Of a stretch of DNA of 64,000 nt, positions 6,883 to 35,965 are shown piece by piece (the stretch's first letter is position 1; each line of letters begins with the position of its first letter). The stretch covers positions 992,001 through 1,056,000 of the forward strand of contig ML978130.1 of assembly GCA_010015805.1 (NCBI GenBank), read 5' to 3'. The stretch is from Rhizodiscina lignyota. Its lineage: Eukaryota. The notes under the pieces are model-generated. The model was not told where the DNA came from and ran no database searches. It was given only the letters and a program-made list of their open reading frames with translations. The translations under genes were made by a program, and so were the position numbers.

Positions 6883-9800
6883 TTAGTAGGCCCGTTCCGA
6901 AAGCTCGATGGCTCTCTGGAGCTCTATCAAGTTCGTCCCGTTCGCCGTATATCGGTTGGGCGTTTGTAAACTCTTCGCTATAGCTCGAGCTAATTCTTCC
7001 TCATCCTCATCAATTTCCAGTAAGCTCTCTCGTCCGCTATCTTCATAAGGACTTGATGGTGCCGGGGAGCTCGCACTTCCAGTGACGGATGCGGTAGAGC
7101 TCACATCTTCGTTCGATCCTAAAAAGCGCAAAGAGGGCATGATTCGCAGGGCGTTCCGAAACCGAGTGGCCGTTAAACCACCAGTACGCTCTGATTGAGC
7201 GGTTTCCCAATCTGAGAAGACAGATGATGATGCTCTCTCCACTCTAATCTCTGGTGTCTCTACTGGTAGTTCTACGGTCTCTGCATCTTCCCCCAAAGGA
7301 AATCCTATGACAATCGAGGCAGTATCCCCGCAATCATCTTCATTTTCCGGGACGTCGAAGAGCGATATCGGTCTATCTTCTGCTACAAGTGCCACTTCTC
7401 TCTCCCTACCACTTCTGGTGGGCCGAGGTCCTGGACGGAGCATACCAACTTTCGGGCTTGCGCTGCTTTCTTTGGCTAAAGAATCCATGAAATCAGTGCA
7501 GATTCGCCCAGTTTCTAACCATCATATGACTCACAATCTTGCAAAACATCTAACACCAAGTTTCGGGGAAAGCCAGAGATCTGAATTAGGTCTACTCCCC
7601 GCCATTGGTCCCAGAGCGCTAGAGCAATTGCGATTTCGCCATGTTTTTCAGAGACTTTGACTCTGATTGATCCCATGTCAAAGGACGAAGTCGTGCACAT
7701 TCCTTCAATCACGATAGGGTCAATTCGATGCACCATCTCCCTTTTATGGCCAGACCGATGCAGTTCCCTCACGCTGAAATGCAGCTGGAAAGCTTCACCT
7801 GCAGCAAGCTGATGATCCTTAAGGAATTGACCCAGTTGACGAAGCTCTTCAGAACCAGTTGCAAATTTGCAGTTGATTTTGCCTACTCCGCGTCAGCATT
7901 GCTCGGCGGGGGGCACAAAACAGGCCTTACCCCAGCAGTGATAGCCATCGTCTTCTTTGTGCACACTAAGTCTTTCAAAGTAGAATGAAGATGCCACAAG
8001 CTGATGGGCTACCCTAGATATCTTTTTCAGGTATCGTTCCTCCTCTTGAAGTTTCACTCGGACTGTTGCCTGAAGGAGATCCAACTGGCGCTTGTCATCC
8101 AAGTTTGGTGGCCGAAAGCCCAACTTTGGATTTATGCGCTGATACCGTCGAGAATCCGGAGAGTTCTTAGATGGCAGGACATCCTTCTTGAAATCTTCCC
8201 ATGCCTGGTCGGAATTTAGAATGTTGTCAACGCGATTGATCATCACGCTCAAGCTTTGACCGAGCTCTGTGCCCTTGATCCACTCAGCAAGTCGGAACTT
8301 CCTCTCTCGAGGACTCGGAGTAACTATGATGTCAGATATGATCTCAGCGCGCCGCCAGCGCCTTTCGTACGGTTCAGCTGTCCCGGTTGTTTCTTCTCCG
8401 TTATGGCCAGTGCCGATTGAAAGAAGAATATCGGGCTGGTATTCCGCGACATCCAACCACAAAAGCTTGCTCTCATGATATGCAACACGGACTGGATTGT
8501 TGTGATATAGTGCTCCATCCAAGTAGCCTTCTTGTGTCTCCTTTTTCACAAAGGGCTTGAAATAGCCGGGAGCAGCCGAAGCAGCACGAAGCCTGAAGTG
8601 AAAACTTAGCGAAGATGCAATCTGAGTCAAGACACAGTAATCGTACACTTCCCATCGCTTTAGCTCGTTGCGAGGATTGTCGGGACGAATCAATTTGTAG
8701 CTTACTACTACGGCATTAGCACAGTATGACACAAGCGAGCATATCAACTACACTTGAACTAACCTTGTCGCTCGACCTCTCTATTATAGTTAGTGAATAT
8801 GACCGGACTCTGCCCTGTATCGGTTGTGCTGGTTATCGCGACTCGTCTGTGGTAGCTCCTTGGGTCATCGTGTTCTCCGCCAAACATGTACTCATCGGGG
8901 AGAACCTCTTTCAGACACTCTTCGAAAGGTCGGGTTCTATACTTTCGCCCAAGTCTCATGCCAGGCAGGCGTAACGTGAAGGCTTTGTCGCACAGTCTTG
9001 TGAAGTGCCTGATGCATGTTTCGACGGGCCAGTTTTCAACCCCGAGACCCATTGCCAGAATACCTCCAGTGCTGTACTATAGCGTAAGTATAAGATAGAA
9101 GATAGTATCTGGAATGTAACATTATTACCTGGTTCCGACAATGAGATCGAAGAATGACTGGATCGGAATGCGCCCGCCAAGATAGAGTTCCAATGCTCGT
9201 AAAACCTCGAGCTCTACGATGCCCCGAACTCCACCTCTGCAAAAGTCAGACAGAGTTGAACTATACAGCTGTTCTCTAGAGTACCAAATACGCACCCATC
9301 AAGAGAAAGGATACGAATACCAGATAGGTCTGGTTTTAATTTAATCTCCCATGGCTCAGTGAACCAGAGACCGTAGCCCTCCAGGGTATGACTGTGCAAA
9401 GGACATCTGTGCAATATGATGCTGTTCTTGTCCTTTGATTCACTTGATCTTTCCTGCTCGTCCAGTTTCTTCTCGTCCAGCTCGCTGTATGTCCTCGCAC
9501 ATGGTGTGCACAGCACATGACCACAGTCAAGAGGGTGTTCTGGCAGGCCTCGCAAGCAACAAAAACAAGCAGTGTGACTGCAAAAGCGCCTTGAGCTTTG
9601 ATAACGTCGATAGAATTCTTGAACATTGCTGCGATGCCTCTCTGAGACTGAATCCTTCTCGGAGACTGTTGGGTTGAGACCCATGTCTTCGACAGTCATC
9701 TTTTGAAATTTGATGACGTTCAGCATAATGGACCTACGCCAGATTGGTCGATACTGCTCAAAGGAGAAAGTTGAAATGTAGTCTCCTCCACTGATGATTT

Positions 9801-11699
9801 TTCCCTTTTCGTTTTGATGTCCTTTTTTGTGACCTTCCAGTACGTTGATGCAGTGCCCTAGTCGATTGCTGAATTCACAGGGCCAGAAACGCCTGCAGAA
9901 ATCCTTTAATGCATCATCGCAGAATGACACGTAGTTTCTTTCGAATAGTTCTTTCGCGGGGCCTATCGACACTAAAAGTCAGTTCCATTTGGGGAGTCCA
10001 AGGAGACCACCTGCCTTTCAATCCATGCCGTACTAAATCAAGGACGATACATGAAGCGACCATGACGCTTAAGCTTTCGAATATTGTCGACACCGGTGGT
10101 CCCGTTGAGACACTCAGGATAGCAACGGCCAGTTTCAAGATGTTGCCTCCGAAATCCCTGGGTATCGGGCTGTTCCGAAAGGCCACCTCCATGAAATTGA
10201 ATGGCATGTCCAGATTCTGCGCAAAGTGGTCAAAGCCGGCCTGTAAATACTGATGCAGTTCGTCTGAGTTGGCCAGCATACGTGATTTCCGCTTTGTATC
10301 ATAAGATTTTGCGCAGGCGATGTTAATTTCCTCGTAAGGCTTAGAAACTTGTTGTTCAACGAGCATGTAACGGTCTCTTGGAATCCGTACAACGCGAATT
10401 GAGGAATAGTAGCAACCAATGAGATCTGACATCGAATGAACTGGTTTGCCGTGGCTACTCCAATATTCTACGTATTTTCGATACTTTTCGTCCTGCCATA
10501 TACTCGACGAGACTCTATCCATGAGGTCTTGAGTCGAGACATCGACGTCCCACTGGCTTGCATCGATTCTTGGGTCGCTTGCGTTTAAAGCAATAATAGC
10601 ATGAGGCAATACCGGCTGGTTTGTTGATTTCTCGACGACTGCATCTGCCCACTCGATCAACTTGCTCAATACAGATGATTGGAAAACTCTATTATATGGT
10701 CAGCGTTCTCTATCCAACAGCATGCAGATTATTGGCGACAGACTTGGGATTCTGAAGAACAAATACAACAACATCAGAAAATGTATAAAGGAGTCTTGGA
10801 TAGAGTTCCGTGACTCCATACTCTCGCTTTTGCTTCTCGGGAGAGTCAGCCCACGTTATATCTCTCTGCACATTTCGCGAAAGTCTGAGGCGCTTTTTCA
10901 GTCTGCCACTGTCGTGAGCTCGGGAATCTCCTCCAGAATTCCTGGATTGGGCTCCGATCGGGAGTGTTTCTCCCCCGTCGAGTCCCTCGCAGTCCGCATA
11001 CAACAACGGGAACTGGCCGAAATATGTAGGAGGGTCGGCGTAAAGATGCACATCTCCTGAGGTTGGAACGATATCATTTTTCATCGTCCCAACAACTGGA
11101 GTTGGAAAGAGATGTCTCTCATCGAAACCGTTCGTCTTCCTCTCGATTAACATTTTGACCAAAGTGCTCTTTCCAGCTCCAGTCTGGCCGATGAATGAGA
11201 CAAGTCGTGGAAATCTGACCGCGTTCTCCTCAAATGCACTATTGGCGAAAAGCGTCGCATACCTTCCATAATCTTGGAAGATTGGATGATTGGCCGAGTC
11301 TCGAGCGATCCCAAACCACGTGGTCTCTTCATCTTCGAGATGTAACCTTTCCTGAGTCACCTCGTCCGAGGGTGGATTGAACGTCGCTTTCAAGCGATCG
11401 ACGACCTCGGGCAACGCTTGTTCATGGGGAATTCCTTTTGGTTGCTTTCCTGGCCTGTGTAAAACTTGCGTTTTCCAGCACTGCCCACAAAAATAAGACT
11501 CGCACTCTCCACAAAGGAAGATCGGAGGCTCAGCGATATCGCAAACAGCACAGCTGGGAGCCGAATGACTCTGATCTGCAATTGAAACGGCAGAGGCAGC
11601 ACCTGGCTCGCCATAGTCGTACAATGATGATGAGTCGTATTGAGATTTTTGCATCTCACGCACACCTGCCTCGAAAGCGTCAAGTAAAGATTCGTCCAT
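6883..11699 (-). CDS. Multidomain protein (~1,470 aa): Zn finger + P-loop GTPase + RING-like finger + patatin-like phospholipase + UIM-like tail
   Basis: Eight exons: 11699-10744, 10688-10015, 9962-9296, 9236-9129, 9071-8764, ~8707-7931, 7882-7535, ~7475-6883. Motifs: CAVC..CGEC..CGQCW..H; GQTGAGKS; DCEG; CFCC..HPLDCGHVLCTPC; DGGGVRG; GTSTG; DGA. The N-terminus could extend further upstream. Confidence 0.85.
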
Positions 11700-12640
11700 C
11701 TCAGCGCCGTCTTCAGCGCTTCAGGTGGCCTTGCGTGCTTCACTTGGAAAGTAAAGGATCGAGGCACCCGCAAGCCTTATAGGAGCTGAAAGCCGCATGG
11801 CCTAGCCCGGCCCTTGGAGTTTTGCATTGACAAGGCTGAAGGAGCCTCGCTTGCCGTGTCCACGGCATGGTCAGGTGGAGAGATTACCCCTGGACAATGC
11901 TCTTCTTCGATACTTACTTTGAAGCACAGGTTTATTTTCTTCGAGAAAGATTCTATAGCGGCCGACATCATGTTCAAATATCTTTGCGCTGGAGTAACTG
12001 GTTGAAGGTTGGCCGCTGGCCGAGAAGGGACCGAGCTCCGAGATAACGCTCGCGAACGCCATGTGTCCCTATCACGGCTCTCCATCACTCGTTTGAGCGA
12101 TTCTGCCAAGCACAGAACGCTCTGCAAGCGCGCCAAATGGCCCGTCCGCAGGCGGTGAGGTCGTGCTCAGCATTCCCGAGACATGTGGCGGGAGGTTGAG
12201 CAGCTAAACTTGACGTCCGCTATCTCGAGTTGAGCTCCGCCCGCTCTTCCGCCGCGTCTCAACAACCTCCCCTTCTCTCTGAATACGCTGTATTTCTGAG
12301 CACAGCTTACCATCCATCCCACGTTCTCACAACTACTGTGCGATCAACAGGAGCCGCGGTGACTCACATGAAAAATCCATTTGGAATGTGCATTTTCCGA
12401 AGTCCGTCAGCCATTTGACCCACACCCGTATCTGTCCGAAGATGCATTGAACATAGCTCAGCTTCATGTTGATAGTCCCTGATCGATGATGATACACCTC
12501 CTCACTCTCCGCATCTTGGTCAAGTAGTTCTCGTCCCTTATCCGATCTTTTGCTTCTTGTCTACTTTATCGTCGGCTGCTTTCCTGTTTGGTGTTTCTGG
12601 TTAATCTCCACTCCTTTTCTTTCTTTACATATTGTAATTC

Positions 12641-16676: not shown

Positions 16677-17279
16677 GACAACTGAAATTCGAACAGATTC
16701 TGCTAATTGGCTTTGAAGAAATCGATACGATAGCAAGGACAGCCATCGTCCAATCTCACCCTTATATATATACCTTTCGAAGATCCAGTGTTGTCCAGGA
16801 TCCTCTCCTTTCTTTCCGAATCACTGTGGTAAGTACGACTCAGATCTCTTGTCTTCCCTGTTGAACATTTCACATTAATATTTGAACGGACGGCTCCGGA
16901 GTCCTGCGAGTCGGCGCTGTACACGGCTGAGGCAGAACTGTGGGCCTCATTGTAAGAGATATTGTGTGGAATAACCCTTCGACATATGCCTTTCTGTTGA
17001 TTTCGAATGTTTGTGGGCGGTGAGGCTTGAGCCTACTCTTTATATGAGAGTCGAATGGTCGAGGACCGAGGCGGCGCTTGGGCCATTTCCCTTTTTGGCT
17101 TGCGGGTGAGCATTTAACACTTACGCAAGTGAACACAAGTAAACACGGCTATGACGTTACGCATATTTGTTCTATCACTTCTTCAAGCTCGATCCATTCC
17201 ATTTCCTCTTTCTCAGTTACACCAAGCCACGAATCGCTGGTATACTCTGCTTTGTCTTCGTTGGCACACGCTAAAGACT

Positions 17280-18266
17280 ATGGCGCCACGAGAACCGCAC
17301 GCGACGGGAATCTTCAGCCTTCTCGCGAAAACCGGCAATCTGGCCCTACCATCCACGACAGCAACATGGGGATCACCTCAATTGAATACCCACACCTCTA
17401 ACCCGACGCCCTCTCCTCCTCGGAACCTTCAAGATCTGCCAACAGAGATTCGACTTCAGATCCTCAAGTGTCTAATCCCAACTGGCATAGCCATTGACAT
17501 TGTAAGAAATTTCCGCCAATATGTAGATGGAACAGAATATTACGTGGGCATGGATGTGCAGGAACGGGAACGTGTGAGGATCCCAGAGCTTGCGGTAATG
17601 CGTTCGTGCCGACGCCTCTACAACGATGTACTGTCATTGCTCTACGGAAGCAATTCGTTTCACCTCCCTCTCGGCCTCGCGAGTAAGGCAAGACCACCGC
17701 TCAGGATGAACTTCCTACGTTGCCTTCCGACCGATGGCTTGCTTCTTGTTAAACGACTACATCTGAGGGTACAAGATGAATTCGGTGAATCACGGAGATA
17801 CCACGCCATGGAACGTACTCTCGAGAAGCTTGTGCAGGTCCTATCTAGCCCTTCTGGCCATTCTTTGACGCAGTTGACTGTGTCATACACAAACTTCCCG
17901 GCCTACATCTCGGACCACTTCAACCTCATTGTATTCAAGCCTGTGGCAGATGATCCAGACTCAAACAAATATCAGTACGTCCTGGAGCCTTTGGCCATGC
18001 TTAAGGTCGCAGAGGCGATGATTGAAGGCACGAGCCAGGAGTTCAGCGAAAAACTCTCACACTACATCATGGCGAAGAATAGGCCAATCTTGCACCGCTT
18101 GCAGTACCGAACAACCGAAGTCCGGACCTATCGTCGCGCTGGTCATTCGAAAGCACGCAAAGGAACCTGGACTGCGCACACGAGGTCACTGAAGAAGTTC
18201 TGGAAGCCGACATGGGACTGGACACGAGTGAAGCAGGGCGAGCTTGAGGAAGAGCCAGAACGTTGA
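17280..18266 (+). CDS. F-box-like motif fungal hypothetical protein
   Basis: LQDLPTEIRLQIL...VMRSCRRLYNDVLSLLYGSNSF is a typical Pezizomycotina F-box-like signature. Intronless; start is 17280 or 17151. Confidence 0.7.
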   Translation: MAPREPHATGIFSLLAKTGNLALPSTTATWGSPQLNTHTSNPTPSPPRNLQDLPTEIRLQILKCLIPTGIAIDIVRNFRQYVDGTEYYVGMDVQERERVRIPELAVMRSCRRLYNDVLSLLYGSNSFHLPLGLASKARPPLRMNFLRCLPTDGLLLVKRLHLRVQDEFGESRRYHAMERTLEKLVQVLSSPSGHSLTQLTVSYTNFPAYISDHFNLIVFKPVADDPDSNKYQYVLEPLAMLKVAEAMIEGTSQEFSEKLSHYIMAKNRPILHRLQYRTTEVRTYRRAGHSKARKGTWTAHTRSLKKFWKPTWDWTRVKQGELEEEPER

Positions 18267-19537: not shown

Positions 19538-22500
19538 ATGTATGATGTTTTTGCACATAATTTTGGCACCGCCGTTTTGCTAAAGCATCTCACCGACGTC
19601 CGCAGCAGTGTTGAGAAGCTGATCAACTTAAATTCGGAACCGGAGGCGACGAATTTACTAGAACAGATCAAGGATTTAATTGCCGTGACCACCTCAATTG
19701 ATGACTTGGCTACTCAAGAACGAAGGAAATCGTCTGAGTATCTAAGACTTCTCTCGCCCAAGGATCATGTCTACCTACAATCAGTCAACAGTAGCACGGC
19801 CGCGATTGTCCAGGACTGCGTGGAACTCATCGAACCCCTTCGAGGCGGACTGGATGACCTTCGAAGCACCCGTGAAAGAGAAGCTGTCGAGATTATTTAT
19901 CAGGACAGCCGACTTGCAGAGTTTGGCTGGTTCAGAGAGACGTTCCAAGATTTGCAACTTCGAACAGCAGTGCTTCAGGTTATGCTCTCGGCTATGAACT
20001 TTCTTCGTCATAAGAATGACACTGATGAAGAAGGCAATATCTCGGCAGAGGCGAGGTCACTGGCGTCAATGCTGCAGTATGAAATCGCGTCTGTTAAGCC
20101 AAAATTACATGGCACCAGTAGACAACGTACCGAGAAGGTAATGTTTAACCATCCTGTTATTGCCGTGTGGAACTGTGGCTTACCGTTTCCAGCTGCAAAG
20201 AGCACTGGCTGCTGCTATCGGAGTCACGTTGGCCGTTCCGATGTCTCTCAACAAGCACTTTATCCTTGGCCGATCGGTGAAATCTTTCTACACCGGCCGT
20301 GAGCGACAGATGGCACAGCTTAAAGAAGCTTTTGAAGACACGGCCTACTCCGGGCAGAAACGATTCGTCATATTTGGTCTGGGAGGATCTGGGAAGACTG
20401 AGCTAGCACTGAAGTTCGCTGTCGACTTCATGCAGAACTACTGGGGAGTCTTCTTCCTTGATGGAAGCTCCAGAAAAAGTGCTGCCGGAAGCTATTCAGA
20501 AATTGCGAAGATAGGTGGCGTCGAGCCAAATGAGAAGGCTGCGAAGAACTGGCTCACGACCCGGGCTCTACCCTGGCTCTTGATCATCGATAACGCTGAT
20601 GATGATGAAGTCCAACTTGATGACCTACTGCCACCTGGATTACATGGATCCATTTTGGTAACGTCTCGCAATCCAGCCCACAAATCCTACGGTACCGTAG
20701 GTCAGAGATATCTGGAACTCCAATCGATGGAGAGAGGAGAAGCGAATGAGCTTATCCTAAGGGCAGCCGAGGAGCCGACGCCTTACGCCACGTCTGCTAT
20801 CGAGGCTGCAAGCAACATTTGTTCGACGTTGGGCTTCTTGCCGCTTGCCTTGATTCATGCTGCTAAAGCAATCTTGCTGGGTCTGTGCACTTGGCACGGA
20901 TATTTGCCTTTTTACGAACGGCATATTCAACGCATCCGACATGAACGGCTCCAGCAACGAAGCAGGAGTCCCTCTCAACATAGAAAACGCTCGAATGAAG
21001 ACGACCACAGCATGAACGTCTTCTCCAGTTACGAGATTTTATACCAGTCCTTAGAGTCATCCCACTTGCAAAGCTATCAGGATGCTGTCGAGCTACTACA
21101 CCTATTCTCGTATTTACATTTCCAAAATATCCGGCTAGACATCTTCATCAATGCTGCCAATAACCCTTCAATAGAGGCGGACTACACCAAAAAAGAAGCA
21201 ATAGAGCTTCAAAACAACTTGGCGAAGTTGAGGAAGAGAGCAAAGGCAAACCATGAGTCAAGAACCGTGAGATCGATCTCGTGGTCAAAATGGCTCCGCA
21301 CATTAGTACATCAAGTCTTGCGCCATTTTGATACTCCTGCCCTGCTCCCCGCCATCCTCAAGTGCCCAGACGGACTTGATGCAGAAACTTTCAGGGAAGA
21401 AATTCAAGACCGTCTTAACATGGCCTTGGCGGTTCTCGTCTCCAGATCTCTCGTAATGAAGCTGGATAGACATGAGAATCGATGCAGCATGCATCCACTG
21501 GTCCATAAGTGGGTAAGAGAGCGACCAGAGATGTCGGCATCACAGCAAGCCCTCTGGTGCCAATTAGCGGCAACAACATTAGCAACGAGCGTTCTTTTCC
21601 CTCCTCCGCTTGGAAATACTGAATTTGATCGGAGCATGAGACGGGAGCTTCGTCAGCATGTCATTCACGTGCGGGAGTGTCAAAGAACAGTTGATGAACG
21701 GTTGATGAAGAATCGAGCACTGAGGAGAAGTGTATGGCCTGTGATAGAGACGAACTTCGGGAGACATCGAGCTGTTGAAGCAGTACGCTTCAGCCGCATC
21801 TACTCGGAATGTACGGACTACAACGAAGCGTTTCAACTTCAGTCCAAAGTACGAACGTTTGTTGTTAATGCACTCGGAGAAGATCATCAACTTTCGATCA
21901 CAATCTCCCTTCTGCTGGCAGGATCGCTATGGGATCTAAGCCGAGTTTCCGAATGCACTAAACTGTTACGACGCTTGTATGAGATCTGCGCAGCATCGTT
22001 AGGTCTCGATCACCCCTTGAGTCTCAAAGTTTCGGATTCCTTGGCCTCAATTCTATTTTTTCAGGGCCACCTCGCGGAGTCTCTTGCCCTTCACCAGGCA
22101 ACCGTAGACGGGATGGTCACTCTTTACGGCGAGGAGAATGAGAACACCTTGAAAGCTAAGAACAATTTGGCCCGCGTACACCGCACTTTCATGGATGATG
22201 AAAAGGCTGCTGAGCTTCATTTGACTGCTTGGGAAGGCATGCGGAGGCTGCTTGGCGAAGCCCACATGGATACTCTTGATTGCCTCGAAGGTTTGGCGAT
22301 GACCCGGCTTCGACTCGACGCGAAGTATCATATTGAATGCCATGACCATATGCAATTTATTCTGGACGAACGCCGGAAGACTTTGGGCAAAGAGCAGAAC
22401 TTTACATTAATTGCTGTTTGTAATCTTGGCCAGGTAAAATCTGCCTTAGGCCATCACGAGGAAGCCGCCAAAATCATGGAGCCAACAATTCGAATCGCGG

Positions 22501-22871
22501 AACGCAATCTCGATGAGGACCACTTTGGCATATCATGGGGCAAATGTCATTATGGTCGCGTTCTCGTCCAGCTTCAACGATATGAGGAAGCAGAAGAAAT
22601 CCTGACTGAGGCTGCGGACATGCGTTACTTCCGGAAGGTGACCGACGGAGGTGAACACCCAGACAGGATATTTGTGATGTGGTGCCTGGCCAGCTGCTTC
22701 AAAGAGCAGAAAAAATTCCGAGAAGCCCTAGAAACCTGCGAGCTCATCGTACAAGCCTTGCAGTCGATTGGCAGAGGCGGCACGAAGCACAAGATGGCTG
22801 AAATGGTGCACGAAGAGATCGCGGCACTAAAGCTAAGCATTAACAGCCAGTTACAAGCTAGTGAGCCATGA
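19538..22871 (+). CDS. Fungal NLR: helical N-terminal domain + NB-ARC + TPR repeats
   Basis: Exon 19538-20137, intron 20138..20192, exon 20193-22871. FYTGRE, Walker A GLGGSGKT, Walker B LLIIDNAD, ILVTSR, LGFLPLAL, MHPLVHKW, and kinesin-light-chain-type TPRs (LGEDHQ, LGLDHP, YGEENE, LGEAHM, LGKEQN). A possible acceptor at ~19498 suggests an additional 5' exon. Confidence 0.93.
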
Positions 22872-23164
22872 AGAGAGACAGCCTTTCGCCTGTAGTATCG
22901 TTCAGCTTGTTAGAATCTGGCATACTTTAAGCTATCTGCTTGCATGTACGAATTATGCCTACTGAAGTCCTACATTCATGATTATCAATGTAATTGTTGC
23001 GTGGGCGATATAACCAATTTCCATAAATAGATCAATAGGTCGTCGTAATCACATTTGGTTGACGTTTGGCAGTTCAGCTTTGTGCTTTACGCGATATTAA
23101 TCCGAGATTCACCGCAATTCTAGCCAAAGAAAATGCCACACATCTTGTCTCTGAGCCGAACCCT

Positions 23165-25262
23165 TCATGTCCTGATACACGCGGTAAGAATTTGTAAAGT
23201 GCGTAGATCCATGTCGACATTCGCTGCTGCTGCAGGTTTAGGAACCCAATTTCGAAAGGATGACTTCGTGCCAGGCACATCAGCCACATCTGCCCTGCCT
23301 ACTAACATGAGAGGTGTATTAGCCTCTTGTGGGCTGTTCGTTTCTCGAGACGGGGCCCGGGACGGAGTGTATCGCATGATCGCAGCCGCACTGCAGTTCC
23401 AGAACCGCACAATGATATCCCCCGCTCTCGCTGCTGGCGGAACCAGCATGATAAGACAGTCTGTGCCCAGCGATATCCTTGGAGCACAAAGGGCACTGCA
23501 CTGGTCGCCACCTGCATTCGTGCGCCCGAAAATCTTGCCATATTCGACGGCATTCTGGCTGCAAGGTCGTTCTTGTTGATCACTGTTCCATGCCACAACG
23601 TTGGGCGCACAAACGTCTTGAATTCTGGCCAAGTAAGACTCGCTGTAATCCATGATGTCTCTTGTGTATTGTTCGTTCGTCTTGCTCAATGTTTCCAAGT
23701 CCTCTGGTTCGTCGTACACGTGAGTCCAGCAAATGGGCCACTCTCGTTGCGCTTGAAATGTGGATATGAGAGTGTTGTAGTCAGGACCGAGTTGTAGAAT
23801 TCGTCCAGCCACATAGCCAATGACTTTGACTATAGGGTTTTTACCAGCCAGCTGTATATCACAAGCTTTAGCAGTTGCTGCTCTCTACGACGAGAATACT
23901 CACCTTAGAGCCTGAATCGTCAGTTACATCTTTTTCCAGTTCCTGGCGTAAAGCTTCTTGCACAACACCCGCTGTTCTCATGATAGTCACTCTTTCTGGT
24001 GCATGAGGAAGGCCTGAGGTAGCTAGATCCTTGCCTCTGCGGCTGTTTAGCCGTTTTTCTTGATCTCGGGTGCTGTTGTAGATGAATCTCACAACATCTG
24101 CCCAGATATCATATATTGACTGACTGTAGTCAACTTTGATGTTATGAAGGTCTACGGGAGACCTCTTGCTGTCTGTTGCTGAATCTGCGAAAGGGGCCAC
24201 ATCCTTAGCAAGGCCCAGAAGCGCATAAATCTTGTCTTTGACCCTGGTACAAGCATGCGTTGCAAAAAGCTCTATTAGGTTCTCGAGCTTCATATCGCTC
24301 GCATGTTTCCGCTTCCTCACATCAAGCAACCGCAACATCTTTGCCTGTTCGATCCTTTTTGAGTGTTGAGCGTTGTCGGATGATTGTTGGGGCACTTGGA
24401 GTCGGGCCTGCGCCATGCATTCCCACTGCTCGATATCTTCACCCGGCCAGATTTTTGATCCATATACGAAAACAAGTTTATACGCAAGGCATACCTCCTG
24501 CACGATCCACAGTCTGCCCCAATAAGTACTTTCCATAATGCGAGCAAACGTATGCAGGTCTGGCTCTTGTGAATAAATCATTCTCGCTGAATCAGCCAAG
24601 AAGTCCGGATATCGGTTCGTTTGTCCGGTCATCCAGTCCAGAGATAAAGCTCGAAAAGGTTCAAGCTGCGTGGTATATGCCTTAGTTCCGAGCCATGCAA
24701 CAACAGTTCGCGCTCTTGTGTAGATAAATGGCATAAGTGCAACCTGGGAATTGCGTTCCAGAGTATCTGACTGGGAGATACAGATCGCATCGATCCATAT
24801 GGACAAAGTATGGTCTGGTGAGCGAAGATGCAGCAGCGCCAAATACAGATTATGATGCACCGGAAATGGCTGCCCGTTCACAGTAATTGCTGTAGACCTA
24901 GACAGTGCTATCTGTGAATTTTTGACAGATGACAGCTTTGGATTCCTATGGGTGGGGACCGCATTCAGGGAGTAGTTGGAAGACATTGTTTTCGCATGTA
25001 ATTGTTGGCCACCCATGGAGCTGGTCTGCGAAATCTCGCCCTCTGGCGAAGTGGGAAGCGAGGCAATATCCGCATAAGGGCTTTCCCATGTGTAACTGAG
25101 CGCAACATATTTAGGCTTGTCACCGAACGTATAAGACACCGAAGTACAAGTGAGAGGATCGTCGAAGTTCCCAGGCTGCAGATTTAGAATACGAAGAGCA
25201 TCCACACCGGCGGGAAGAGGAGGGTAGATGACGCTCTTTTCTACAAGCGACTGGATGTTCAT
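23165..25262 (-). CDS. Heterokaryon incompatibility (HET domain, HET-6-like) protein
   Basis: YVALSYTW, NLYLALLHLR, IWIDAICISQ, ERNSQVALMPFIY, YWGRLWIVQEV, DKIYALLGL. Intron 23903..23852. Confidence 0.93.
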
Positions 25263-34332: not shown

Positions 34333-35965
34333 TCAAATCATCTTCCGTTCCTCAACTGTTATGAAGATCGATTTAGGTTTCCGAATCGCAGAAATTCCTC
34401 TCGGTTCAAGCACAGAGTCTGGATCAAGTGTGATCTACGCAGCTGTCAGATGTTCGCTCAGGGGCGCAACCGTAAAGAGTGGACATTACCTTAAAGTTCA
34501 TTAGCAAATGAGGGATGAACTTCTTCCACTCCATCTGTGCGATATGCATTCCAATGCAGATTCGTTTTCCAGTTGAGAAGCCCAAAAACGTCTTCTCCAT
34601 CTTCTTCCGTTGCTCATCAGTAGCTTCCAGCCATCGTTCTGGTCTGAAAGTTTCCACGTCTTTGCCGAAAACTTCCTTGTCCTGATGCATTGTCACCTGC
34701 TGACATCCGACGACAGTGCCTTCCGGTAGGAACGTGCCAGCAATCGTCGCACCTCCTTTTGGCACAATGCGATCGATTGAGAACTGGCCAATAGGATAAC
34801 ATCGCAGCGTTTCCTTGAGGACGGCATCCAAGTATGGCAGGACATTGACCTCGTTCCACAGGGGTGAGTCAGAGAGCTTACCCGCGGCCGCAGCAGCCTT
34901 GAGCTCTTCCATGACTTTGTCATACGTCGAAGGATTCTTCAACAGATAGTATATTGTAGCTGACAGAGTAACAGCGGTAGTATCTCCGCCTGCCGCAATC
35001 GTCGAGATCACTAGCGAGAGGACTGAGTCAGAAGATATAGTATCCGGATGCTTCTCTGCCGCATCCATGAATTTGGCAAGCAAGTCCTTTTGCGCCAGCG
35101 GTTGTGTGGCCGTCTTCCTCGCCCGGATTTTACTGGCTGCCATTTCAGCCAATGGAGAGCCTTTGCTAGCAGCCATCCTAACGAGCAGGTTTTTGTGAAT
35201 CAATTTTTCGAGCGCCGGCAGGGCAGCCCACTTTGCCCAATACTCGAAGCGAGAACTAATCGCTGCCATACTGTTACCAACATCTGTACCAGATGAAACA
35301 AACGCAGGCGTTTCGCTGAATGCTATGCGACTCATCGCATCCATTGTGTAGAAAAACAGCCAGGGTATCATGTCAAACCTTGCCCCTTGCTTCTTACGGA
35401 AGACGTCTAGCACTTCCTCACTCGATTCCTCCAGGTATTTTTCGTAGTCAAGGAGGGTGTAGGTCGCGAAGGCATTTCCGACGCCTTTTCTGAGCTTTGT
35501 GAAGTAGTCTTCGGAAACGGTGCTGACGATGCTTGGCATGACCTTGCCTTTGTTGATCGACATCAGAGGGTGATAAGAATCTGCCTAAGATATTTATTAG
35601 ACACAGGTATAGGAGAAAATCCGACGTCATCTATAGATAGAAATTATACTCACCTTGATCCAAACTGGTCTCGTGCCATATATGATTGGTATTGCTGCTG
35701 GATCTGCAACACTCACATATCTCGGACCGAGTCGTACAAGTTTACCATACTTCTGGTGAAGTGAATAAACGTACTCGGCATAAAAAGGCTGCCGCATCTT
35801 TGATGCTCTCCATGCATTGGTAAGGCTGGCGACAAAGGGTCCCTTGATGCCGGTAGAAAGGAGCCGGAAATGATTGTATACCAAGCGGCCGAGGAGAACG
35901 ACGAGAAAGCTGCCAATAATGACTATTGGAGGATACATGTTCAAGGAAACAAGATTTGGAGACAT
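34333..35965 (-). CDS. Cytochrome P450 monooxygenase (pisatin demethylase/benzoate hydroxylase-like clan)
   Basis: N-terminal TM, KYGKLVRLGP, AGGDTT, KETLR, FRPERW, heme motif FSTGKRICIG. Two GT-AG introns. Confidence 0.93.

Follow-up and report, generated by a model that had tools for sequence, protein, structure and literature searches.

A convergent pair of NLR and HET genes in Rhizodiscina lignyota

We analysed 64,000 nucleotides of the fungus Rhizodiscina lignyota (contig ML978130.1, positions 992,001 to 1,056,000 of the forward strand; below, the window, in whose own numbering positions are given), where a gene for an NLR of the NB-ARC and TPR type and a gene for a HET-domain protein lie tail to tail, and we find that the same two genes, usually together with a cytochrome P450 gene, are neighbours in distantly related fungi. 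The NLR gene lies on the forward strand, join(19538..20137, 20193..22871), and encodes 1092 residues; its single intron (20138..20192; 55 nt, GT..AG) falls at the boundary between an N-terminal domain and the NB-ARC. The HET gene lies on the reverse strand, join(25262..23904, 23851..23165), with one intron of 52 nt (23852..23903, GT..AG), and encodes 681 residues. Both frames are open, and both spliced products equal the deposited R. lignyota proteins letter for letter. The NLR stop codon (TGA, 22869-22871, forward strand) and that of the HET gene (TGA, 23165-23167, reverse strand, reading TCA on the forward strand) are separated by an intergenic spacer of 293 nt (22872..23164), in agreement with the original prediction, made from the DNA letters, of two intact convergent genes with stops about 290 bp apart.

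The same orthologues are neighbours in distant lineages

HET genes are abundant in fungi, so a single adjacency of an NLR and a HET gene in one genome is unremarkable. For instance, 124 HET-domain open reading frames are given for Cryphonectria parasitica (PMC7849911), and we infer a chance of about 2% that any given gene has a HET gene as its immediate neighbour. Chance adjacency can nevertheless be rejected here, as the same two orthologues recur side by side in other fungi. For the comparison we took the best 120 relatives of the NLR, the best 120 of the P450 described below, and, for the HET protein, a clade of 82 proteins together with 38 generic HET matches. The clade is sharply bounded, its members scoring at E≤7e-53 before a drop to 1.5e-38, with generic HET matches near 1e-23. 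Sharing of a contig was inferred from contigs of identical size, with one representative per 90% cluster and limited by protein length, and the counts are therefore lower bounds.

At least 27 pairs of an NLR and a HET-clade protein lie on contigs of identical size, 14 of these contigs being only 11-80 kb long, and none of the 38 generic HET matches shares a contig with the listed NLRs or P450s. The linkage is specific to the closer relatives of the NLR: when contigs of 10 kb or longer are considered, 45 of the 73 NLRs in ranks 1-97 are joined on their contig by a HET-clade protein or the P450, compared to 1 of the 21 in ranks 98-120.

The order of GenBank accessions gives a similar picture. 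In each of the 12 species consulted (Rhizodiscina among them), which span Sordariomycetes and Dothideomycetes, NLR and HET are one to three genes apart. Rhizodiscina serves as a control for this use of accession order, its two proteins being numbered 176 and 177 and their genes adjacent in the window. NLR, P450 and HET have consecutive accessions in Hypoxylon crocopeplum, Xylariomycetidae sp. FL2044, Bombardia bombarda, H. trugodes and Melanomma pulvis-pyrius, and a single gene separates NLR and HET in Diplogelasinospora, Triangularia setosa, T. verruculosa and Amniculicola. The NLR is directly beside the HET gene in Naviculisporaceae sp. PSN 640, and in a thirteenth species, Thermocarpiscus, the two have consecutive locus tags. 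In Tothia fuscella the proteins are numbered 668 (NLR), 667 (P450) and 665 (HET), leaving one unexplained number between the P450 and the HET protein.

We also scanned from the HET side, fetching the DNA that surrounds 80 relatives of the HET protein in metagenomes. In four distinct environmental organisms (L008/9/10/28, L014, L021 and L022/23) an NLR with the same N-terminal domain lies within 5 kb of the HET gene, and none of the 46 loci around generic HET genes (L035-L080) has an NLR carrying that domain. Outside the NLR, P450 and HET genes there is no similarity among the loci, nor with the window. Taken together, the same orthologues are adjacent in distant lineages between flanks that are not conserved, and this is a conserved gene cluster. 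Whether the two orthologues are linked across species was a check attached to the original prediction, and they prove to be linked in many relatives, through several gene orders, and not unlinked.

Within the 27 pairs, distances between the NLRs correlate with distances between their HET partners (Mantel r = 0.55, reached by none of 9999 permutations), and in a FastTree phylogeny of the HET proteins, which has many unresolved forks, the linked members are scattered through a core clade of 77 rows and absent from a basal group of six. Separately, two generic HET loci (L059:781-2940 and L060:303-2459) have, about 7 kb upstream of the HET gene, a TPR protein with 22% identity to the NLR and without its N-terminal domain, showing that loose proximity of HET and NLR genes occurs without this specific pair.

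In our literature search, which covered full texts with subscription journals and supplementary neighbour tables outside its scope, neither an NLR-P450-HET cluster nor a conserved pairing of an NLR with a stand-alone HET gene was described. Supplementary tables S2-S6 of PMC9815663 and S6 of PMC12258605, outside that search, might list such neighbours. What the searched literature does describe is pairing of NLRs with effectors through amyloid motifs, pairing of NLRs with SNAREs, NLR-NLR clusters, and HET proteins whose partners are not NLRs.

A cytochrome P450 is the usual third member

In the metagenome loci, the stretch that separates the NLR and HET genes encodes a cytochrome P450 with an intact haem-binding cysteine motif. 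It is CYP52-like, and the source records of its relatives call them “n-alkane-inducible cytochrome P450” or “alkane hydroxylase”. At least 35 of the best 120 NLRs share a contig with a listed P450, as do at least 19 HET-clade proteins, and at least 13 contigs carry NLR, P450 and HET together. The P450 accession lies between those of the NLR and the HET protein in six named species, and NLR and P450 have consecutive locus tags in Nemania. The P450 gene also accompanies NLR and HET in the four environmental organisms named above, and three further loci (L013, L017, L020) begin or end within it, just upstream of the HET gene.

NLR and P450 stand head to head, their starts being some 0.5-0.8 kb apart by an estimate from coordinates. 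The HET gene follows the P450 in L009, L014 and L021 and is on the other side in L022/L023, giving two environmental gene orders (<-NLR P450-> HET-> and HET-> <-P450 NLR->), to which Rhizodiscina adds a third (NLR-> <-HET). The usual unit is thus a triad in which a CYP52-like P450 is divergent from the NLR and commonly lies between it and the HET gene. The locus had originally been taken for a two-component one; the third gene was invisible from this DNA, since Rhizodiscina is without it. A search of the 64-kb window with a full-length cluster P450 found no relic near the pair. The only P450 in the window (34424-35584, reverse strand; Pfam, 218 bits), 9 kb from the HET gene, was considered as a replacement and rejected, having 24% identity to the cluster P450 over 34457-35374. 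Rhizodiscina has lost the cluster P450 and keeps NLR and HET tail to tail. Direct adjacency of the two without the P450 is found in three lineages: Rhizodiscina, Naviculisporaceae sp. PSN 640 and Thermocarpiscus.

In one locus of the second environmental order, the 2.7 kb between HET and P450 (L023:12102-14810) hold more open frames, one of them of 198 residues and low complexity, and this form of the cluster may include an extra gene.

The NLR begins with a family-specific helical bundle

Exon 2 of the NLR gene (20193..22871, forward strand) encodes an NB-ARC ATPase (about 20292-21512) followed by a TPR region of the kinesin-light-chain type (about 21765-22787). The motif set of a P-loop NTPase is complete, with Walker A GLGGSGKT at residue 262 (20376-20399), Walker B LLIIDN at 329, a GLPLA-like GFLPLA at 414 and an MHD-like MHPL at 633, and G262, G265, G267, K268, D333 and D336 are invariant across 30 orthologues. 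When compared to the PDB, the profile of these 30 matches the NB-ARC of plant NRC4 (E 2e-07, profile positions 259-426), bacterial AfsR (E 7e-07) and the TPRs of kinesin light chain (E 1.2e-23). Pfam PF00931 gives no match to the Rhizodiscina protein and is recorded for two of its relatives; AAA_16 reaches 24.6 bits, under its cut-off of 32.6. The TPRs match TPR_12 (98-100 bits, cut-off 30.1) and TPR_10 (60-62 bits, cut-off 27.5). Judged by its motifs and profile matches, the protein belongs to the NLRs of NB-ARC-TPR type among the STAND NTPases. There are no DNA tandem repeats in the TPR region, which is thus not a highly conserved repeat array.

The first 200 residues, a domain peculiar to this family, are encoded exactly by exon 1 (19538..20137, forward strand) and match no Pfam family; in the Rhizodiscina NLR, the models of HeLo, PigL_N and SesA (PF14479, PF17111, PF17107) give no match at E≤10. 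Among 1.84 billion representative proteins the domain has 41 matches at E≤0.001. Eight of these are proteins of 775-1094 residues, three of them already among the listed NLR relatives, and the other 33 have 73-277 residues. The short ones look like exon-1 fragments, consistent with gene calling that is blind to introns, and the position of the intron at the domain boundary therefore seems to be conserved.

An AlphaFold2 model of the domain from a 25-sequence alignment (predicted local distance difference test, pLDDT, 91.2; predicted template modelling score, pTM, 0.87) consists of five long helices (residues 11-31, 35-63, 74-117, 130-158 and 170-192). This is in line with the original description of a helical N-terminus with no recognisable enzymatic or amyloid motif. 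A Foldseek search of the PDB with the model gave nothing at E≤0.001. Comparison with 48,161 chains by VIA-align placed IncA at the top (Z 11.8), with the coiled-coil (CC) domain of Rx (Z 9.7, root-mean-square deviation 2.9, 104 aligned), MLKL (Z 9.3, root-mean-square deviation 2.5, 100 aligned; and 8.7), the CC-R domain of NRG1.1 (Z 8.1) and MLA13 (Z 8.1) among its neighbours, though the tool warns that for helical bundles a Z below about 13 may be chance. When language-model features are considered, the 30 nearest Atlas clusters comprise 13 of PigL_N (HeLo-like), three of PigL_N with SesA, two of SesA and 12 without a family, the PigL_N and SesA clusters scoring 0.90-0.92 (PigL_N 0.92). Structure and language model thus give two weak, independent leads that would place the bundle with death domains of the MLKL, CC or HeLo-like kind, and the NLR may carry an executioner domain of its own instead of being a headless sensor.

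The Rhizodiscina NLR has 61% identity to its relative in Cudoniella and 59% to that in Chlorociboria, both Leotiomycetes, and 57-59% to those of Sordariomycetes; identity to other Dothideomycetes is lower (Melanomma 56%, Tothia 55%). As far as such identities go, this discordance with class would fit either old paralogy or transfer of the cluster.

The HET protein appears to be of the ordinary stand-alone build

Exon 1 of the HET gene (23904..25262, reverse strand) encodes the HET domain (residues 52-256; 24495-25109) and then a helical middle region. The Pfam HET model (PF06985) is covered in full (positions 1-146) at 89.4 bits against a cut-off of 22.5 (E 3.7e-25), and the blocks YVALSYTW, WIDAICI, ERNSQ and WIVQE are kept. 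Across 32 orthologues D158, Q164, E169, W252, Q255 and E256 are invariant, and the protein is conserved through its final residues. The AlphaFold2 model (pLDDT 82.4, pTM 0.84) is a single compact body, in which an insert in the HET domain (residues 81-121) is modelled poorly.

Exon 2 (23165..23851, reverse strand) encodes the C-terminal part, including a beta domain resembling the Het-6 barrel (residues 455-681; 23168-23848). The modelled strands lie within residues 539-668, and the last strand (662-668) and the helix after it (669-676) are modelled as part of the barrel. By language-model features, all 30 of the nearest Atlas clusters for residues 455-681 fall in the Het-6_barrel set (score 0.98, 195-199 features in common); hmmscan gives no match of PF26639 (Het-6_barrel) to the protein even at E≤10. 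A Foldseek search of the PDB with the whole HET model gave nothing at E≤0.001, and the HET profile found no relative with a solved structure. The protein appears to be of the ordinary stand-alone build, a HET domain with a Het-6-like barrel. HET domains had been described in the original prediction as usually fused to NLRs, which does not hold here, and many HET genes outside NLRs are described in PMC7849911 and PMC13449251.

We found no amyloid motif or other motif shared between the NLR and the HET protein, the comparison giving E≥2 by BLASTP and a profile-profile probability of 0.1%. In the model only about 10 residues of the NLR precede the first helix of the bundle. A complex prediction for the HET protein with the N-terminal domain of the NLR (score 0.00, mark 0.34), with their own alignments unused and controls not folded, gives no verdict.

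Among HET-clade genes that lie apart from NLR and P450, two from environmental fungi have a second, different HET-domain gene immediately upstream (L004:7108-9552, reverse strand; L018:6816-8711, forward strand), forming HET-HET pairs, and in L018 a gene with a PARP catalytic domain lies 3 kb downstream.

Other genes in the window

The gene 5′ of the NLR (17151-18266, forward strand) has a weak match to DUF7730 (23 bits, cut-off 27), and no such gene was seen beside the cluster in the other loci compared. Beyond the HET gene lies an MFS transporter gene and, farther out, a GH31 glycosidase, the different P450 mentioned above, a PhoD phosphatase and others; these flanking genes look unrelated to the pair. 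Some 8 kb away, successive open frames (7893-11720, reverse strand) have weak Pfam matches below the cut-offs, with a ZZ domain and a P-loop kinase at 10713-11720 and the C-terminal end of a patatin phospholipase at 7896-8747, all on the reverse strand. They may form one multi-exon gene of unusual build, possibly related to cell death.

Comparison with known systems

The closest precedent for an NLR beside a cell-death gene is nwd2/het-S of Podospora anserina, whose neighbourhood is likewise conserved in several fungi (PMC9815663, PMC3321046). There the relay is a short amyloid motif common to the N-terminus of the NLR and the C-terminus of the effector, whereas the Rhizodiscina pair has no shared motif, its NLR starts with a folded bundle of 200 residues, and the C-terminus of its HET protein is, in the models, part of a folded barrel. 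The partners also differ, being a HeLo protein in Podospora, and here a HET protein with a P450 usual in the cluster. A second likeness is to plp-1/sec-9 of Neurospora, het-Z of Podospora, vic2 of Cryphonectria and Bcvic1/Bcvic2 of Botrytis, in which an NLR of NB-ARC/TPR or NACHT type is tightly linked to its partner across distant fungi and carries a death domain of its own (PMC13449251, PMC11138114, 10.1101/2022.04.03.486892). In these the partner is a SNARE and the effector of the NLR a patatin or esterase, while here the neighbours are a P450 and a HET gene and the N-terminus is a helical bundle. By analogy with these systems, the NLR might monitor its neighbour here too.

Stand-alone HET proteins with a linked partner include vic6/pix6, and polymorphism is the hallmark of such HET/partner incompatibility loci. 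None of the partners of stand-alone HET proteins known to us or met in our literature search is an NLR or a P450. In pin-c/het-c, het-6/un-24 and the Bh/Bp pair of het-B (for Bh/Bp, PMC10890737), a HET protein with a C-terminal recognition domain is tightly linked to the gene of an interacting partner, and the cluster resembles them in this linkage. In the HNWD genes het-e, het-d and het-r, a HET domain and an NLR likewise cooperate in cell death (PMC13449251), though as a single polypeptide of HET, NACHT and WD40 parts; here there are two genes, the NLR is of NB-ARC and TPR build, and its N-terminal domain is another one. In plants, TIR proteins signal to helper NLRs with CC-R domains (NRG1/ADR1). 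The pairing here of a TIR-like enzyme domain with an NLR that starts in a helical bundle of some structural likeness to CC-R and MLKL (NRG1.1 Z 8.1, MLKL Z 9.3) recalls that arrangement. This is an analogy only, the structural match being within the noise of helical bundles, and no EDS1-like genes were seen.

Interpretation of the cluster

We read the pair as the Rhizodiscina copy of a recurrent fungal cluster of three members, an NLR, usually a P450 and a stand-alone HET protein, with NLR and HET acting in one pathway, a reading that we judge about evenly poised between right and wrong. As the linkage survives three gene orders and the loss of the P450 between unrelated flanks, NLR and HET would belong to one pathway of regulated cell death. 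In such a pathway, ligand recognition by the TPRs of the NLR would lead to oligomerisation through the NB-ARC. The executioner, directed at membranes, may be the N-terminal bundle itself, of the MLKL, plant CC or HeLo-like kind to which the weak structural and language-model leads point. The HET protein would then be a partner and not the sole effector, either as a second, TIR-like executioner or as half of a monitoring pair as in the linked systems above, and the P450, where present, would be the best candidate for a monitored protein or a source of ligand.

Several observations weigh against this reading. The linkage has many exceptions: of the distinct organisms whose HET-clade metagenome loci have usable flanks, about seven have the P450 and/or the NLR beside the HET gene and about 11 have neither (L001, L002, L003/L015, L004-7, L011/12, L016, L018, L025, L026, L027 and L032), their HET genes being surrounded, within the flanks examined, by unrelated genes. 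The HET clade extends beyond the cluster. In Chaetomium olivicolor and Xylaria acuta the relatives of NLR and HET lie on different contigs, and among the matches listed 27 of the 50 NLRs with contigs of 8-100 kb have no listed HET-clade protein or P450 on the same contig. Correlated divergence of NLR and HET is also expected from plain vertical descent of two unrelated neighbours. The likeness of the bundle to death domains is weak, with Z of 8-10 under the noise level of about 13; its Atlas match shares 163 features, compared to 170 typical for true family members, and none of the 25 members of its alignment matches the HeLo, PigL_N or SesA models at E≤1.

The original prediction, a sensor and an effector split between two genes and signalling in trans without an amyloid motif, fares well as far as the linkage of the orthologues and the absence of an amyloid or shared motif are concerned, and less well in other respects: the N-terminus of the NLR weakly resembles executioner domains, and many contigs with NLR and P450 have no listed HET protein. 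Its strict form, in which the NLR is only a sensor, its bundle an adaptor for activation in trans of the neighbouring HET protein, and the latter the sole TIR-like executioner, with no amyloid involved, seems to us unlikely. It would account for the conserved linkage, for direct adjacency without the P450 in three lineages, for a domain that is confined to this NLR family and has no enzymatic signature, and for the intact conserved residues of the HET domain. However, no part of the HET protein resembles the bundle by sequence or profile, and a homotypic adaptor contact is accordingly not indicated; the nearest neighbours of the bundle in structure and language model include executioner domains, and 22 of the 35 contigs with NLR and P450 have no HET partner among the matches listed. 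Somewhat more credible, though still improbable, is the absence of any functional link, the genes being a small block inherited or transferred as a unit, or members of two families that gather in the same variable regions. HET and NLR genes are both numerous (PMC7849911, PMC12258605), many members of the HET clade have no partner, and the greater closeness of the Rhizodiscina NLR to Leotiomycetes and Sordariomycetes (59-61%) than to other Dothideomycetes (55-56%) fits transfer or paralogy. Against this, the association of the same orthologues outlasts at least three gene orders and the loss of the P450, between unrelated flanks; none of the 38 generic HET matches is on a contig with a listed NLR or P450; and in the loci compared we saw nothing like a transposase gene among the three genes or next to them, though no systematic search for one was made.

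An allorecognition (het/vic) locus, in which the linked genes occur within a species as divergent haplotypes and fused cells are killed when the HET protein interacts non-allelically with the product of its neighbour, has a precedent in Bh, a HET protein with a lectin fold that acts with the adjacent Bp (PMC10890737). We doubt it here, since the NLR is conserved across classes, with 52-61% full-length identity and similar lengths among the best 30 matches, and its TPRs are not a hypervariable repeat array. The wiring might also be reversed, with the TIR-like HET protein upstream, its barrel as sensor, a small-molecule signal that the P450 may modify, and the NLR as a downstream helper that executes through its CC/MLKL-like bundle. 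The combination of domains is the sole support for this, the neighbours of the bundle including NRG1.1 CC-R (Z 8.1) and MLKL (Z 9.3); it would agree with the remote homology of HET and TIR (PMC9815663) and with the haem-binding cysteine motif that the P450 keeps. No result here favours a small-molecule relay, however, and Rhizodiscina and two other lineages do without the P450. TPR sensors of this kind are, moreover, not known to us to bind nucleotides, and we regard the reversed order as very improbable. The boldest reading is a three-part immune circuit free of amyloid: HET (TIR-like) and the CC/MLKL-like NLR would form a pair of sensor and helper like plant TIR proteins and helper NLRs or bacterial TIR systems, the P450, with a promoter region common to it and the NLR, would be a guarded target or would make or shape the ligand, and Rhizodiscina would retain a minimal functioning core of two genes. 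We consider this circuit a long shot.

Significance

To our knowledge, the NLR genes of fungi run to dozens and their HET genes often exceed 100, nearly all without a known function. The fungal NLRs known to us to have a linked partner use an amyloid relay (nwd2/het-S) or guard a SNARE (plp-1/sec-9). Our results suggest that the cluster adds to the fungal NLRs with a linked partner gene, as a triad that is apparently undescribed. Its recurrence offers a concrete pair or triad for studying the control of stand-alone HET proteins in tractable fungi. It bears on the possibility of amyloid-free signalling in trans by fungal NLRs, and on whether a metabolic enzyme can be a monitored target or a source of ligand, for which the Rhizodiscina locus, having no P450, is a natural reduced version of the triad.

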